Shown in pieces: positions 403 through 31,293 of a stretch of 33,748 nt of DNA. A program made the translations under genes and the position numbers. Where the stretch lies: IMG/VR virus record IMGVR_UViG_2718218139_000002. One strand, written 5' to 3'. The notes below the pieces were generated by a model. That model ran no database searches and was not told where the DNA came from. It was given only the letters and a program-made list of their open reading frames with translations. Each line of letters starts with the position of its first letter. Position 1 is the stretch's first letter. The DNA is from a virus. Taxonomy: Duplodnaviria; Heunggongvirae; Uroviricota; Caudoviricetes.

Positions 403-2868
403 ATGAAGGTTTGGCTTATTTCTCAAAAGTGGTTCTGGAAATTAAGAACAGATCTTGTGAGGGTTAGATTTATTTTAGAACGTGCGTCATACATACATCG
501 TACGTCTGTTTTTAAAGCTAAGTCTAACGCTCATGTTTTTATGTCTTTTGCGTTGGTAGGTTTAAAAAATTTGTTATGGGTCATATTAACGTTATTTGCA
601 CTGGGTTTTGTTGAAGATTATATTCGGAATAATACGATTTTGCTTCATCCTCTTAGCTATGATGAAAAAAAATTTAATATTGATCAACTTAGGTTGTACG
701 CACAGATACTTACCGCTATATTTTCAATATACTTTGCTACAATAGGTATCATTCTAAGTGCAGGATATACCAGACTTCGGCGAGATATTATACAAATGCT
801 TACTACCGAGCAGGTAGGTAATGTGTATTCGCGGACTTTAGTGCTTTCTGCGGTGTTTTGTCTTAGTGCAACTGCTCTCCACTTGTTCGGGGTTGAACCC
901 GGTCTTTTCGTTTATGCAATGGGAACATTGCTGACACTTGTTAGTTCCTTAGCTCTGTTCCCATTAGGTCAAAGATTATTCAATTTTTTTGACCTAAATC
1001 AGTTAGCCCGAAGTGAAATACTCCCACGAATTGCACGACACATCGAAGGTGCGTCTAATCCCAAGAATTCAGTATCTTTAGCTAATCATCACTCTAAAGC
1101 CGCACATTTGGCCTTTGAGCAGTTAAACTACATTGATGATCGCCTGATATGTGAAAAAGTAGGACTCGGAGATAATTTACCTGCTCTCAGTAATGTTTAT
1201 TCGGCATTACTTCTTCATTACCTTAATCAGAAACACAGAATTGATTATCAAAGTTACTGGTTCCCTAGACGAATAAAACATAAGCAATGGTTCTTAGCTG
1301 GCGACAGTGTAACATCCATTGCTTTAAAAACAAGGAGCCAATTAACGGTTGAAGAAGAACCAAATTATCTTTGGTTAGAGAATGAAATTATCAATAGGTT
1401 GGTAGGCCATATTGAACTTGCATTCAAAGCCGGTGATTTCAAGCTCGGGTTGGATCTCATCAGTCTATTCTCATCTCGTATATTAACTTATGCACAACAG
1501 TTTCAGTTCGATATTGGTATACGTGAACTTCGGAAAATGAAGACGATCATTGAAAAAGCCTTTACACCGTCTGATGTCGTTAATTATTTTGAGGAAAAGG
1601 TGATAAAAGTTGGAATTGCGGATGCATGGGCTGCATTAGGCAGCAATCTTTGCCTTGAAATGTTACGCCGCATGATTACTTTTGAGAAAGAATTGGAGCA
1701 GTTCTTTAAAGATGATATCTGGACAGAGACCTCTCTACACACTTTGCCTGCTTTTCTGCAGGTTGAGTTGGCCTTTATCGTAGAACGTATCGAATTCGAA
1801 AAAGAGATTGAAGGACAGAGATTATCCAAACCAAAGTACGTCCAGCAGTTGGCGGTTCAGAAGTTATTACAACAATATTCTAAAATTCTGCCAGAAGTAT
1901 GCGATTTTCACGTAAACATGGTTCCAGATTTCGTTAACTCACTGATAAACATGAAGATGCCGGAAGCCGCAACGCAAGTCGTTCTCGCTAGCCTACATAA
2001 TCATTTGAAGTTTCCCCATTGGTTTAATGAACTTTCTCTGCTCTTGGAGAGATACAGAAAGTACGAGCACTACTCTGAAAAGCTATACGCATTACCAGAA
2101 ATTAATATTGCTGAAATGCTCAAACAGTTTGTCGTTACACAGGATGAAGCTATAGCTATTCTTGGTAGGGAGGAAATTGTGGGACATATCATTGAACAAG
2201 AGCAAGATGATGAACTACCGGATCATTTGGGACAGATATATTTTGAGTTGGCTGAGGAATGTATACATGCGCTTGAACAGAATGATGAAAATAAACTGAG
2301 CAAGGTATTCCCTATGTTCATGGTTCTCTCATTGCTGGCATCAGATACTAAATTTGTAGATCCGAAACTCGATATAAACAACGAGTTTCGACTGCATCTC
2401 CTTTCATCCGCGATCAACGATCTGATGTCAGTTCTAGGTTTTGCTATCCTTTACAGTGCTTATTTCGATAATGCAAAACTATCTAAAACAGTACTTGATA
2501 GGTTTAAGTCTTGGCTCGAGTCTGTTCCCAACAAACAGCAGTATTTGAAGAGAATGATGATTCTTTCAAATCCGCGCAATTTCAGCTTGTGCGCATCACC
2601 GAGAGATATGATTCGTCTTAACTGGAAAATGGAATTTGAGCGCCGCGCAAGACATGATGGCTTTAGCGATCAAATGGGAATGAATCGAGGGAAATCTCAT
2701 ACGAACAAAGTTGTCAGAGAGTTCTTAAACTCCCATTCAGATGCATCGCATCTCTTTTGTGCTCTCGAAATTTTCCCGCAACTCGAGCAAATTGACTTCA
2801 AGATCGATTACCATGTTAGTGAGTTGGCTCGTCGTTTTGGCGTGGAATACGATAAGGATTTTGAATGA
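403..2868 (+). CDS. Large membrane protein, four predicted N-terminal TM helices plus a roughly 630-aa soluble domain; no recognisable family
   Basis: Long ORF 391-2868 (TTG at 391, first ATG at 403; start uncertain). Hydrophobic segments FMSFALVGLKNLLWVILTLFALGFV, LYAQILTAIFSIYFATIGIILSAGY, VLSAVFCLSATALHLFGV, LFVYAMGTLLTLVSSLALFPLG. AT-rich relative to phage genes. Stop overlaps the next start (ATGA). Confidence 0.6.
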   Translation: MKVWLISQKWFWKLRTDLVRVRFILERASYIHRTSVFKAKSNAHVFMSFALVGLKNLLWVILTLFALGFVEDYIRNNTILLHPLSYDEKKFNIDQLRLYAQILTAIFSIYFATIGIILSAGYTRLRRDIIQMLTTEQVGNVYSRTLVLSAVFCLSATALHLFGVEPGLFVYAMGTLLTLVSSLALFPLGQRLFNFFDLNQLARSEILPRIARHIEGASNPKNSVSLANHHSKAAHLAFEQLNYIDDRLICEKVGLGDNLPALSNVYSALLLHYLNQKHRIDYQSYWFPRRIKHKQWFLAGDSVTSIALKTRSQLTVEEEPNYLWLENEIINRLVGHIELAFKAGDFKLGLDLISLFSSRILTYAQQFQFDIGIRELRKMKTIIEKAFTPSDVVNYFEEKVIKVGIADAWAALGSNLCLEMLRRMITFEKELEQFFKDDIWTETSLHTLPAFLQVELAFIVERIEFEKEIEGQRLSKPKYVQQLAVQKLLQQYSKILPEVCDFHVNMVPDFVNSLINMKMPEAATQVVLASLHNHLKFPHWFNELSLLLERYRKYEHYSEKLYALPEINIAEMLKQFVVTQDEAIAILGREEIVGHIIEQEQDDELPDHLGQIYFELAEECIHALEQNDENKLSKVFPMFMVLSLLASDTKFVDPKLDINNEFRLHLLSSAINDLMSVLGFAILYSAYFDNAKLSKTVLDRFKSWLESVPNKQQYLKRMMILSNPRNFSLCASPRDMIRLNWKMEFERRARHDGFSDQMGMNRGKSHTNKVVREFLNSHSDASHLFCALEIFPQLEQIDFKIDYHVSELARRFGVEYDKDFE

Positions 2869-3857
2869 AAATTATCAAGAATATACCCCTTTACGGTTAT
2901 AGCGTCGATCCTGAGCAATTAAGTTTTGTTGATAGACTATTGACCAAGTCTAAGAATGAACGACCAGGTTTCTATCAAAGGATGTTTTATGAGGATTTTG
3001 CTAGAGTTTTTAATTTTGTAAATCACGGTGATACCAATTTGTTTCAAATCGAAACTAACGACGAAGAACTCATACGTAAAATGTTTGGAAATTTACAAGC
3101 TAGATATAGGAAATACTCGGTAGATGAAACAATACGTGAATTGGTGGAGGCAGTAGCGCAATCGTTGATTTGGCAAGGAACGGCATACTATTTTGTTCAA
3201 AACGTTTCTGAGCAAGAAAAAATACATATTACTCCTCTCGTTTCTGATAATATATTTTGTTTTTTTTCAGTGTATTTTCAGTATGTGCCGAAACGGTGTG
3301 AAAGATATTTAGAACGGGATCATGAGATGCTTCCAAGAGAATTAAGAATCTTGGATAAAAACAAACTAATGCGTTTCGAAATTCCTAGGTCCTTAAGGCA
3401 GATGTTGTCTGAACAAAATCGGACTTTAAAGATCATTGACAAGCATCAATTTGGTGTTACTAATTTTTATCCTCAAGCAACATACGAAAATCCTAACCCG
3501 AAAAGTCACTTTGATTTTAGCATTTGGAAAAATACGCAAGAGCAAGCATTATTCCGAGCTACGAGGAAAACCGGGTGGAATGGTAGAAATTATGATTCAT
3601 CAAAATGTTCTGATTTCTTCCATTACTATCGTCTTATTCGATTTAGACGGAATCAACTTATTTTACGTGATTATATATTGTTGCAATTAGGTAAAGAGCT
3701 CACAAGGGTAGGTCACCGATATAATGAGGACTTTAATGTTGTGATTTCACCAACAAGTGTTTTGCCTCAAATCGATAAACTAGATGAGATGGAATCATTA
3801 CTTTCTAGGGAGGAAATAGATTTTACTGAGGTGTCGGATTACTATTACGAACGTTGA
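2865..3857 (+). CDS. 330-aa soluble hypothetical protein, partner of the membrane protein
   Basis: ATG at 2865 overlaps the upstream TGA (2866-2868), indicating translational coupling; AT-rich; no motif recognised. Confidence 0.6.
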   Translation: MKIIKNIPLYGYSVDPEQLSFVDRLLTKSKNERPGFYQRMFYEDFARVFNFVNHGDTNLFQIETNDEELIRKMFGNLQARYRKYSVDETIRELVEAVAQSLIWQGTAYYFVQNVSEQEKIHITPLVSDNIFCFFSVYFQYVPKRCERYLERDHEMLPRELRILDKNKLMRFEIPRSLRQMLSEQNRTLKIIDKHQFGVTNFYPQATYENPNPKSHFDFSIWKNTQEQALFRATRKTGWNGRNYDSSKCSDFFHYYRLIRFRRNQLILRDYILLQLGKELTRVGHRYNEDFNVVISPTSVLPQIDKLDEMESLLSREEIDFTEVSDYYYER

Positions 3858-4648: not shown

Positions 4649-4900
4649 CTAGTAGTAATGGTCATAACCTCCGCTTTCTCTTCTGGCTCTGGATGCTCTC
4701 ACTCGTGCTTTTCTTAACATCCTTAACAGCGGGTGGGTTTGTACTTTGTTCGAGTTTATTGTCTGTGAGGATAGTAACTCCCTGCGCTCTGTCTCTGCCT
4801 CTTTGGTGACCGCTATCACTGATAAATCCCAATCGTGTTTGCTAATTAACGGTGCTTGGAACGGGGTGATTGGTGAGCGATTTATGTCTTGTCGTTTCAA
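4649..4900 (-). CDS. ORF occupying the N-gene position downstream of nutL; not recognisably an N antiterminator
   Basis: 83-codon ORF with TTG start lying 16 nt after a lambda-like AGGAGAATCCAG ribosome-binding stretch; arginine-rich segment RMLRKARVRASRARR is near the C-terminus rather than the N-terminus. Confidence 0.2.
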   Translation of the reverse strand: MKRQDINRSPITPFQAPLISKHDWDLSVIAVTKEAETERRELLSSQTINSNKVQTHPLLRMLRKARVRASRARRESGGYDHYY

Positions 4901-5020
4901 TGTACGCTGTCTGGATTCTCCTGTCAGTTAGCTTTGAGTAACGCGCCGTGATGCTTATCTCCACGGTTGCTGTCTTGCAGCTGCATTTCGCGCTACTCAA
5001 AGCCTTCTGCTTTGAATGCT

Positions 5021-5052
5021 GCCCTTCTTCAGGGCTAAATTTTTAAGAGCAT
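5021..5052 (-). promoter_or_regulatory. nutL: nutL (boxA plus boxB) N-utilisation site, lambda-type
   Basis: Minus strand reads TGCTCTTAAAAATTTAGCCCTGAAGAAGGGC: boxB hairpin GCCCTGAAGAAGGGC as I recall for lambda nutL, boxA one mismatch from CGCTCTTA. Confidence 0.7.
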
Positions 5053-5180: not shown

Positions 5181-5214
5181 TTGGAAAAAGAAAACCCGAC
5201 GCTAAGGTCGGGTT
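5181..5214 (-). terminator. Terminator downstream of the repressor gene
   Basis: Hairpin AACCCGAC-GCTAAG-GTCGGGTT (5193-5214); on the minus strand it is followed by TTTTCTTTTTCC. Confidence 0.55.
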
Positions 5215-5244
5215 ATTGTTGTGTGTTTTAGAGTTGTGAGGCTG

Positions 5245-5904
5245 TTAACTAAATGTCTCTTCAGGCCACTGGCTGGCGATAACTTTCCCTACTACGGAAC
5301 AGCTATCATTGCATGGAATCATTGGATATTGCGGGTTTAGTGGCTGTAGGAACACCTGACCGCTATCCCTGATCAGTTTCTTGAAGGTAAACTCGTCACC
5401 ACCAAGTCTGGCTATGCAGAAATCACCTGGCTCAACAGCCTGCTCAGGGTCAACGAGAATTAACATCCCGTCAGGAAAGCTTGGCTTTGATCCTGTTGGC
5501 GCGGTCATGGAATTACCTTCAACTTCAAGCCAAAACGCACAATCACTGGCTTTTTTGGTTGTGCTGACCCATCTCTCCGCATCACCTTTGGTAAAGGTTC
5601 TAAGCTCAGGCGAGAACATCCCGGCCTGAACATGAGAAAAAACAGGGTACTCATATTGTTTTTTAACGGGGGCAGATGAGTATTCGCCAACAGGTGAAAA
5701 TGTACCGTCGTGGTTGAATGAGACGTTATCAATACTAAGGTATTTAAACACCACACCAATCTCGTCAAGAGATGGATGACGAGATCCGCGCAACCAGTGA
5801 CCAATTCCACCCTGCGTCATACCAAGCTCTTCAGCTAACTTCTCTTGAGTTATGCCGAGCTCTTTCATTCTGGATCTAGCCAGTTCATACCATTTCATTT
5901 TCAT
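5245..5904 (-). CDS. cI: CI-type prophage repressor: HTH N-terminal domain plus LexA-like S24 autocleavage domain
   Basis: C-terminal half ([22 protein letters not shown]...GNSMTAP...FTFKKL...ASQWPEETF) matches lambda cI as recalled; N-terminal HTH domain differs. ORF extends to 5946; start placed at the MKMKWYEL methionine, alternatives at 5946 and 5940. Confidence 0.85.
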
Positions 5905-6015
5905 ACCCTTATTATTACGCTCTGTACTAAAACCATCCATGCACAAGATGTATTTTTTGTTTGCATTCTAAAAGTGCATATCGTATTATTGTTTCATGGT
6001 TACTATGGAGGGCAT
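5905..6015. promoter_or_regulatory. Divergent immunity control region (pRM/pR and operators)
   Basis: Intergenic region between divergent repressor and cro-like genes; candidate rightward promoter TTGCAT (5961-5966), 17 bp, TATTAT (5984-5989); GGAGGG ribosome-binding site at 6007-6012. Confidence 0.5.
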
Positions 6016-6222
6016 ATGAGCAACCTACGAAAATATCGAGAGTCACTGAATATCTCTCAAACAACACTTGCTAAGGCAGTTGGATGCACACAGGGAGCTA
6101 TCGGACATTGGGAATCTGGTCGTCGCTTCCCAGACCTTAAAACATGCCGTGCTCTTGTTGAGTGCCTAAAGCGGTATATGACGAGAACAGTAGCGCCGCG
6201 CCATTTGCTGAAATCATCGTGA
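6016..6222 (+). CDS. cro: Cro-like HTH regulator, C-terminus probably altered by a deletion fusion
   Basis: First gene rightward of the operator region; HTH segment [25 protein letters not shown]; the last 17 or so codons run into the helicase-remnant sequence. Confidence 0.55.
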
Positions 6223-6377
6223 CGAAAAACCGTTTTGGCTCGCTTGGTACGGTTTACCAGCGGTTCTGCAACGGACACTTTGTTGCATGTGACCAGGATG
6301 AAGCCAGACAGATTTGCACAGAATCAAATGCACCTGCTGCGCGTGGCAGACGATATGCACAAGGGGCGGACGTATGA
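6195..6377 (+). pseudogene. 3' remnant of a DnaB-type replicative helicase gene (P22 gene 12 position)
   Basis: Translation [36 protein letters not shown] resembles the extreme C-terminus of DnaB-family helicases; no upstream helicase body or O-like initiator gene present. Confidence 0.5.
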
Positions 6378-6402
6378 CCATCTACATCACTGAGCTAATA
6401 AC

Positions 6403-6433
6403 AGGCCTGCTGGTAATCGCAGGCCTTTTTATT
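6403..6433 (+). terminator. tR2-like rho-independent terminator
   Basis: AGGCCTGC-TGGTAATC-GCAGGCCT followed by TTTTTATTT. Confidence 0.7.
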
Positions 6434-6449
6434 TGGGGGAGAGTAAATC

Positions 6450-6656
6450 GTGGTTGAGTTGATTTTTTCTGCATTGAGGATTCTCGGTGCTATGTGGATG
6501 GTGTCGACGTTCATTGCGGTTGTCGGAAGTTTTGTCCGGTTGGTAGGCGAAGGTAAAGACCTGGTGGGTGTGCTGTTCGGTAGCATTCTCCTGTGGGTGA
6601 TTATCGGTGTTGCGCCTGTCGCTGTAGCAAAAATGGCGTGGCGTTTTGTGAGTTGA
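6450..6656 (+). CDS. Small hydrophobic protein (about 2 TM), nin-region ORF
   Basis: GTG start with GGGGGAGAG ribosome-binding site; very hydrophobic 68-aa product. Confidence 0.4.
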   Translation: MVELIFSALRILGAMWMVSTFIAVVGSFVRLVGEGKDLVGVLFGSILLWVIIGVAPVAVAKMAWRFVS

Positions 6657-6663
6657 GGTGACA

Positions 6664-7110
6664 ATGAAGCAAATATACATGCTTCGCAACGAAGCAATCA
6701 GAAACAACGCCATAGACGCAATACTCTCACTTCCGATCGACGACAAGTCACCTCACGAAGTCCACATTAAAGAACCAAAGCGGAGCAATCCTCAAAACCG
6801 CCTTATGTGGGCGTTATTGCAGGACGTATCACGTCAGGTGCTTTGGCATGGACAGAGACTTGCGCCGGAGGACTGGAAAGACCTGTTCACTGCCCTGTGG
6901 CTTAAGACCAAAAAACTGGAGCAACGAAGTGTGCCTGGTATCGATGGTGGCGTTGTCATGCTTGGCGTGCGTACCAGCAAAATGCGAAAGGCCAGCATGA
7001 CTGAGCTTATCGAAATCATGTTTTGGTTCGGCTCAGAGCGCAACGTGCGGTGGAGTGATGACTCCCGGCGAGAGTATGAATGGTCACAACGAAAAGGTAG
7101 GGCTGCATGA
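6664..7110 (+). CDS. ninB: NinB recombination protein
   Basis: Clear similarity to lambda NinB as recalled (SNPQNRLMWALLQDVSRQVLWHGQRL; C-terminal [20 protein letters not shown]); ATG at 6664 after GAGGTG. Confidence 0.85.
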   Translation: MKQIYMLRNEAIRNNAIDAILSLPIDDKSPHEVHIKEPKRSNPQNRLMWALLQDVSRQVLWHGQRLAPEDWKDLFTALWLKTKKLEQRSVPGIDGGVVMLGVRTSKMRKASMTELIEIMFWFGSERNVRWSDDSRREYEWSQRKGRAA

Positions 7111-7634
7111 CTATCAAATCAAATACACCAGCACACGACAAGGACTGCTGGCAAACGCCGCTTTGGCTTTTTGATGCGCTGGATATTGAGTTTGGATTCT
7201 GGCTGGATTCAGCTGCGAGCGACAAAAATGCTCTGTGCGCTCACTGGCTAACTGAGGCCGACGACGCACTCAATTCTGAGTGGATAAGCCACGGTGCAAT
7301 CTGGAATAACCCACCGTACAGCAATATCAGGCCGTGGGTGGAAAAAGCCGCTGAGCAGTGCATACAACAGCGACAGACGGTAGTGATGCTTGTGCCAGAG
7401 GATATGTCTGTCGGATGGTTCAGCAAGGCTCTGGAGAGTGTTGACGAAGTTCGCATTATCACTGATGGACGGATTAATTTTATCGAACCATCGACAGGGC
7501 TGGAGAAGAAGGGAAACAGTAAAGGCTCCATGCTGCTGATTTGGCGACCGTTCATCAGTCCTCGACGGATGTTTACTACCGTATCCAAAGCGGCATTGAT
7601 GGCGATCGGGCAGGGCGTCAGGAGGGCGGCATGA
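7107..7634 (+). CDS. Phage DNA N6-adenine methyltransferase (Dam-type)
   Basis: NPPY catalytic motif (IWNNPPYSN); start overlaps the ninB stop. Confidence 0.8.
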
Positions 7635-28178: not shown

Positions 28179-28246
28179 AGTTGAAGCCCCAACTGCGGGA
28201 ACAGTCAGGGCTTCGGTATCAACAAATCGGATTAGGAAATATTGAC

Positions 28247-29125
28247 ATGAAAAGTATAGCAAAGGCACAAAACGATTTCACCATCTTCAAATTCGGCGAC
28301 AGTGAAATCCGCGTCATCAACAAATGCGGTGAGCCGTGGTTTGTAGCAAAAGATGTTTGTGATGCTTTAACCCTGACTAACTCACGCAAGGCGCTTACTG
28401 CACTTGATGACGATGAAAAGGGAGTAACTTTAAGTTACACCCTTGGTGGTGAGCAGAATCTAAGCATTGTTAGCGAATCAGGTATGTATACATTGGTTCT
28501 GCGCTGCCGCGATGCTGTCAATAAAGGTTCGGTCCCGCACAAATTCCGCAAGTGGGTAACAGCAGAAGTTCTACCTTCAATTCGCAAACATGGCGAGTAT
28601 GTGAAAGGCAAGAAAACCACTGTTGAGGAAAGAACGCCGCTACGCGATGCAGTAAACATGCTGGTAGGAAAGAAAGGACTTCGCTATGACGATGCATACA
28701 ATATGGTTCATCAGCGTTTTGGTATTGACAGCATTGATGAACTTTCAATTGAACAAATCCCGCTGGCCGTAGAGTACATCCACAGGGTAGTGCTTGAAGG
28801 CGAGTTTATCGGCAAACAAGAGAAGAAAGCAAACGAGCTTTCTGCAAAAGAAGCAAACAGCCTTGTATGGCTATGGGATTATGCTAACCGTTCACAGGCA
28901 TTATTCCGCGAACTGTATCCGGCATTAAAACAAATTCAATCGAACTATTCCGGCAGATGCTACGACTACGGTCATGAATTCTCGTATGTTATCGGAATGG
29001 CGAGAGACGTTTTAATAAACCACACACGAGATGTTGATATTAATGAGCCAGACGGACCAGCGAATCTTTCCGCATGGATGAGACTTAAGAATAAAGAATT
29101 ACCTCCTTCAGTACATAACTACTGA
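28247..29125 (+). CDS. ant: Antirepressor Ant (Bro-N domain)
   Basis: Follows arc; AGGAA ribosome-binding site before ATG at 28247; Bro-N-like N-terminal domain ([28 protein letters not shown]). Confidence 0.75.
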
Positions 29126-31254: not shown

Positions 31255-31293
31255 AAGAAAAATATATTTAAATTGGTGCAAAAACTTGGACGC

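Follow-up and report, generated by a model that had tools for sequence, protein, structure and literature searches.

The window, a 33,748-nucleotide stretch recorded as a caudoviricete virus (IMGVR_UViG_2718218139_000002), carries the remnant of a P22-like prophage whose immunity region is joined to the end of a replication gene. A cI-type repressor gene (5245-5940, minus strand), with HTH_3 and Peptidase_S24 domains in Pfam and 99.5% DNA identity to the copies in intact prophages and phages, is transcribed divergently from a cro-like ORF. The OR/PRM/PR control region lies between the two (5941-6015), and a promoter scan places a PR-like -35 element at 5960-5965 and the -10 element at 5984-5989. 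The cro-like gene, here termed cro′ (6016-6222, plus strand; ATG at 6016, stop codon at 6220-6222), is a fusion ORF encoding 68 aa, with codons 1-51 belonging to native Cro and codons 52-68 read from out-of-frame helicase DNA. Overlapping its end in another frame is an ORF at 6162-6377 that ends in ...YAQGADV and shares its frame with the 3′ remnant of a P22 gp12-type DnaB replicative helicase gene (6170-6377, plus strand; codons 390-459 plus the stop codon of a 459-aa parent). There follow on the same strand a 27-aa ninA-like ORF (6374-6457), which is a close match to P22 NinA and overlaps a tR2-type intrinsic terminator (6403-6436), a 68-aa conserved hypothetical ORF (6450-6656; phrog_1165) that lies between the helicase gene and ninB in intact relatives, and ninB itself (6664-7110; Pfam NinB, E 7e-49), the first gene of the nin region. 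Counted from the cro ATG (6016), ninA begins 358 bp, the 68-aa ORF (6450) 434 bp and ninB (6664) 648 bp further on, and the figure of about 440 bp between cro and the nin region given in the preliminary description is a fair one.

The helicase remnant amounts to the last 69 codons of its gene, and its translation aligns to helicase C-termini: it is 97% identical to the helicase of Escherichia coli CFSAN061762 (tblastn E 2.5e-40), and 64 of the 69 residues (93%) are identical in the C-terminus of P22 gp12 (E 4e-44). The nucleotide match to P22 runs from 6169 to 6443 and takes in ninA as well as the end of gene 12; over these 275 bp the identity is 94.2%. The preliminary description had seen a DnaB-like C-terminal signature in two ORFs and spoken of the last codons of a helicase gene; the signature is borne out for the 6162-6377 frame (residues 390-459), but the tail of the cro frame is out-of-frame helicase DNA, and the C-terminal remnant, at 69 codons, is more than a few. 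It has no Pfam match, carries neither a Walker motif nor any catalytic motif, and has neither a ribosome-binding site nor a start codon that is credible; what remains is a pseudogene fragment and not a helicase.

The terminator, which had already been read as tR2-like, consists of a G+C-rich hairpin (stem 6403-6426; 8 bp, six of them G-C pairs) followed by a T-run, TTTTTATTT, and folds with -16.8 kcal/mol (z -2.1). The surrounding 70 nt (6374-6443) match the ren-ninB spacer of lambda, at 40567-40636, with 98.6% identity, and in the P22 record the equivalent hairpin inside ninA is annotated as a lambda-like terminator. The hairpin and T-run together (6403-6436) make a predicted terminator of the lambda tR2 type.

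The joint between cro and the helicase gene

Both halves of the locus are present, in the same order and orientation, in the genome of E. coli CFSAN061762 (NZ_CP042901.1). Window 5200-6170, covering cI, OR/PR and cro codons 1-51, matches it with 99.5% identity, and window 6169-7132, covering the helicase 3′ end, the ninA-like ORF with tR2, the 68-aa ORF and ninB, with 98.7% identity. Between the two matching blocks that genome has 2,885 bp (from cro codon 51 to helicase codon 390), a size that, like the exact list of lost genes, is an estimate from a reference prophage, as lambdoid mosaicism means that the ancestor's module may have differed. In the window the blocks meet at 6169-6170, where the DNA reads GTGCCTAAAGCGGTATATG; the left parent continues past the joint as ...CCTAAACAAG, the right parent leads into it as ...CGGGAAGCGG, and AA (2 bp) is common to both parental sequences. 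When 5900-6700 was compared by megablast with 50,697 phage records and the 5,426 complete genomes of E. coli, no record covered the whole query: thousands of records match from query base 270 (window 6169) rightward only, where the annotated products are a replicative DNA helicase, a hypothetical protein and NinB. With 5200-6175 as the query, 775 genomes and several phages match from the left end and stop at window 6170.

The block absent from the window comprises, in NZ_CP042901.1, cro codons 52-71, nutR, a cII gene (PF05269, Phage_CII, E 5e-48), a 90-aa ORF, the gene for an O-type initiator (PF04492, Phage_rep_O, E 7e-15) and helicase codons 1-389. The 119-bp cro-cII spacer of this relative is near-identical to that of lambda and bears the nutR boxB GCCCTGAAAAAGGGC. 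Its O-like gene contains an internal repeat array with a 12-bp period, of the kind that forms lambdoid origins, and the P22 record annotates the origin within gene 18, the counterpart of the O-like gene. Its full-length helicase (459 codons; PF00772 and PF03796, E 1e-77) has DnaB at residues 3-95 and DnaB_C at 171-423. A look at related intact prophages at argW, which had been proposed earlier, gives a similar layout: in strain 98224, cII, an O-like gene and the gene of a DnaB-like helicase lie between cro and ninB. For the module lost from the window, the helicase type alone is fixed, through the retained 3′ end of its gene.

A lambdoid replication module is made up of an initiator gene with an internal origin and a helicase or loader gene between cII and the nin region, and the window has no such module. 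The O-like protein, helicase and cII of the relative, when compared with the window by tblastn, have the 69-codon helicase remnant as their sole match, and the different O-like and DnaB-like proteins of a second relative have none. Every sizeable ORF of the remnant up to argW is otherwise accounted for. The earlier statement that initiator, helicase body and origin are all gone is upheld in the window, with no intact replication module elsewhere in the same prophage. With no origin, initiator or helicase, we infer that the remnant is unable to initiate its own replication.

Taken together, the colinear flanks and the missing block very probably record one deletion of about 2.9 kb by illegitimate recombination at a 2-bp microhomology, which would have cost a P22-like prophage at argW all the DNA from codon 52 of cro through codon 389 of the helicase gene. 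The preliminary description had proposed a deletion from within or just after cro to the 3′ end of the helicase gene, and the comparison with NZ_CP042901.1 agrees with this, placing the left end within cro.

Lambdoid genomes are mosaics, and vB_EcoP-720R6 has the same cI-cro region with a different primase/helicase module, so that the joint might be a natural one in a viable phage that keeps its replication functions elsewhere in the genome. We consider this highly improbable: the joint interrupts the frames of both cro (codon 52) and the helicase gene (codon 390), it is covered by none of the 50,697 phage records, no initiator or helicase is found anywhere in the remnant, and the N, terminase and portal genes are missing as well. 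A stepwise origin of the gap, through an IS insertion with an adjacent deletion and later loss of the IS, or through successive smaller deletions, is in keeping with the IS600-like and IS911-like insertions elsewhere in the prophage and with at least one other large deletion, at 4910. Yet 6169-6170 shows no IS end or remnant, no target duplication and no filler, none of the 5,426 complete genomes is an intermediate that carries one junction without the other, and a single event is more parsimonious, which makes the stepwise route distinctly unlikely.

The single deletion would further have to be a feature of living genomes rather than of a contig that was collapsed or wrongly joined. Among the 5,426 complete RefSeq genomes of E. 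coli none has either junction (6169/6170 or 4910), and beyond this nothing speaks for an assembly artefact. A 61-mer spanning the junction was found in at least five independent assemblies, in which it sits, identically, inside contigs of 252 kb to 1.4 Mb; over 12-16 kb these assemblies agree with the window at 99.86-100% identity, both deletions included. The exact Cro′ protein occurs in 52 collection blocks on 37 contigs, the longest of 5.2 Mb, and every named source is E. coli. As the joint shares 2 bp only, there is moreover no repeat flanking the AA that could have collapsed. The chance of an artefact is hence vanishingly small, and, as judged from these assemblies, the cro′-helicase structure is real and restricted to a lineage. 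A scan of GTDB species representatives for the exact 29-nt junction gave no match, which carries little weight with one genome per species.

The altered Cro and the retained immunity region

The first 51 residues of Cro′ are identical to those of the 71-aa Cro of intact relatives, after which 17 out-of-frame residues take the place of residues 52-71 (20 aa); the earlier suggestion that Cro itself may be altered thus holds. A full-length Cro has the C-terminal segment ...LNKLGAKVSLDDVFPP..., which is not present in Cro′, and the part that is missing reads NKLGAKVSLDDVFPPEHKAA. A homologue of known structure with about 50% identity, PDB 28tn_A, conserves this segment as LNKYGASVSIDDVFPP, with the shared pattern LNK.GA.VS.DDVFPP. 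In phmmer alignments to the N-terminal domains of P22 C2 and the 434 repressor, the match over the first four helices stops at about residue 51, and the segment lost from Cro′ is what we take to be the fifth helix of the fold, following the helix numbering of the 434 and P22 repressor structures. BLASTP of intact Cro against the N-terminal domain of the 434 repressor gave no alignment, so that the helices are assigned from the phmmer alignments with P22 C2 and the 434 repressor together with an AF2 model. This single-sequence model of Cro′, of moderate confidence (pLDDT 77.7), has helices at 3-11, 15-22, 26-34 and 41-57 and a disordered tail.

Short of its conserved C-terminal segment, Cro′ is probably destabilised, weakened or inactive. 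One might alternatively envisage it as a working regulator that still binds OR, such that a two-repressor switch controls the nin-region genes. The HTH_3 match (PF01381; residues 4-52) is in effect unchanged (E 3e-12, against 1.4e-12 for intact Cro), and the four helices of the model are predicted with confidence, both of which would suit such a role. Against this stand the conservation of the 20 replaced residues in a distant solved homologue, their place as a fifth core helix by alignment to P22 C2/434-type folds, the predicted disorder of the new tail, and tR2, which follows at once with no N or nutR for read-through. We accordingly find a functional Cro′ doubtful and favor one that is impaired. 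In practical terms, the annotated 68-aa "helix-turn-helix transcriptional regulator" and the 71-codon ORF that follows it are deletion products and should not be listed as genes in their own right.

The cI-cro region matches those of the Stx phages Nil2 and phage 2851, and its Cro is of the type found in these and in phage 2B8. The cI gene looks intact, with one substitution relative to intact relatives, G69S (base 5736). A single base in the PR spacer/operator, at 5976, differs as A to G from both intact relatives compared. The 5976 change and cI G69S could affect repression. A lambda-type nutL boxB hairpin, GCCCTGAAGAAGGGC (5021-5035, minus strand), is kept despite the loss of N and nutR. 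The retained cI and operators probably still repress PR and PL and make the cell immune to homoimmune phages, vB_EcoP-720R6, Dewey and Louie among them.

With the early-right operon of P22 (cro-c1-orf48-18-12-ninA-ninB) the remnant shares the gp12 C-terminus, ninA with its embedded terminator, ninB and the structural genes. It differs in being devoid of c1, 18 and most of 12, and in an immunity region that is not that of P22, with N/nut elements of the lambda type and an XRE/HTH_3 Cro as in Nil2, phage 2851 and phage 2B8. P22 cro, which had been put forward for alignment, is unrelated to the cro here, which encodes a 434/XRE-type HTH_3 protein.

The argW island and the second joint

The first 4910 bases of the window are not phage DNA; they are the distal part of an island of about 10 kb at argW, and are 99.6-99.8% identical to its copies in strains MIN14 and 98224. 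The island stands alone in MIN14, and in 98224 it is in tandem with a P22-like prophage in the undeleted layout. Its genes are ordered as integrase, AlpA, further genes, rep, 330-aa, 821-aa, 58-aa and resolvase, and in other strains it has a satellite-like layout. The window retains the 821-aa ORF (403-2868), the 330-aa ORF (2865-3857) and the 58-aa ORF, for whose products Pfam, PHROGs and PADLOC gave no match; a defence role for the 821-aa and 330-aa proteins is a guess on our part. As a possible identity for the island we considered the PICI EcCIMP1, whose helper phage Kapi1 reportedly integrates at argW. The text of the paper on EcCIMP1 does not name argW, and we set this identification, at most a tentative one, aside.

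The island ends in a second deletion junction, at 4910, where the first base of the start codon of a lambda-type N gene is joined, with a 1-bp overlap, to the 3′ end of the island rep gene. This gene encodes a "rolling circle replication-associated protein", and its last 262 nt survive at 4649-4910. The deletion took most of rep, the genes up to the island integrase, the integrase itself and the hybrid att site, and on the prophage side torI, RecT, kil and all of the PL operon up to and including N.

The other end of the prophage lies at tRNA-Arg(CCT) argW (32666-32740), which adjoins the integrase gene and yfdC. The integrase ORF is of the IntS type (31347-32540, minus strand) and abuts argW, and strain 98224 has an intS-argW-yfdC stretch that matches window 31290-33748 with 97% identity. 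An att core, CTGCAGGGGACGCCAT, is found at 32665-32680, at the 3′ end of the tRNA, with one mismatch to the published KplE1 core; it is the only core in the window. A recombination module of the KplE1/HK620/Sf6 type, as described at argW (PMC2951348), is hence represented by its integrase and one att core, without excisionase or second att site. No match to TorI and no second core occur in the window, as both lay in the segment taken by the 4910 deletion. In the carrier assemblies L003-L005, no core-like sequence (up to 2 mismatches) is found at the position of the island's outer att in MIN14 and 98224. The composite of island and prophage is probably fixed in place.

Among the prophages and phages that use this site, namely KplE1 (CPS-53) of E. 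coli K-12 and HK620, Sf6 and CUS-3, the remnant has in common argW as attachment site, an IntS-type integrase gene directly beside it and an att core located at the 3′ end of the tRNA. KplE1 and the remnant are also both defective, in different ways: KplE1 has lost its cI module and kept torI (PMC2951348), whereas in the remnant cI is still there and torI, attL, N and the replication module are gone.

Predicted behaviour and decay of the remnant

The genes for the small and large terminase subunits and the portal protein, expected at 15905-15996 between the lysis genes and the scaffold gene, are missing, and tblastn with the proteins of a relative gave no match. The replication deletion is one of at least five inactivating lesions in the prophage.

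Were PR derepressed, a short cro′ message would meet tR2 about 200 nt on, and without N and nutR it would not be antiterminated. With N and nutR gone and tR2 present, little transcription would reach Q, and the nin/Q region would be expected to stay silent. The absence of torI and attL would preclude excision, and that of terminase and portal would preclude packaging. Lambda genetics has established that kil, N-dependent early expression and in-situ replication kill cells in which a non-excisable prophage is derepressed. By stripping kil, N and in-situ replication, the two deletions would make the remnant harmless, such that it might be tolerated by the cell or even benefit it. Either selection or neutral drift may have fixed them. 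It is conceivable that the deletions at 4910 and 6169/6170 reflect selected domestication, in which the cI/operator cassette, perhaps with a DNA-binding Cro′, serves as an immunity module in its own right, directed against homoimmune phages of the P22-like and Stx kinds and fused to a possible defence island; we rate this as rather unlikely. The case is one of ordinary prophage decay and not a new kind of system.

Two familiar sets of defective prophages bear comparison. Laboratory constructs such as lambda cI857 Δ(cro-bioA) of recombineering strains keep the repressor and operators, have cro and O/P removed, and can neither switch nor replicate. The remnant likewise keeps repressor and operators without replication genes, but its deletion is natural, with a microhomology joint, and it retains the nin-to-tail region and has lost the genes of the PL operon. 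The cryptic lambdoid prophages of K-12, DLP12, Rac and Qin, have undergone piecemeal loss of early, replication and morphogenesis genes together with IS insertions, and keep a few cargo or regulatory genes. The remnant follows the same pattern of decay and differs in its P22-like lineage, its integration site and its lineage-specific deletion endpoints.

The locus thus furnishes a base-resolved example of the grounding of a lambdoid/P22-like prophage, wherein microhomology deletions flank the immunity region and the repressor stays. For annotation, the prophage is best classed as non-inducible and non-replicating. The two junctions can be used as lineage markers, given that neither is found in the complete E. 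coli genomes searched.

The early-right genes that remain in the prophage are ninB, a Dam methylase gene, ninE, a 590-aa ORF, an HNH endonuclease gene, ninG, a phosphatase gene and Q. The 590-aa ORF (8317-10089, minus strand) lies in an A+T-rich insert between ninE and HNH/ninG, on the strand opposite to its neighbors; phrog_9230 matches it over its full length, Pfam and PADLOC gave no match, and it is probably a moron or cargo gene. The lysis genes left are those for a holin, an endolysin and Rz, the endolysin gene being split after about 100 codons by an IS600-like element (orfA 14275-14577, orfB 14613-15431; region 13908-15905), with an Rz-like spanin ORF resuming at 15459. The remaining structural genes are P22-like and encode the scaffold, the coat protein, the Ad3 and Hc3 connectors, the tail needle, ejection proteins and the tailspike. 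Among these, the major head (coat) gene is interrupted by an IS911-like element of the IS3 family (17352-18556, minus strand), which leaves two parts, 16908-17348 and 18520-19413. The other ORFs of the remnant are two small ORFs, Ant and IntS. An antisense RNA of the Rfam sar family (RF00262, 71.6 bits; 28179-28245, minus strand) overlaps the start of ant (28181-29125), as in P22 immI.
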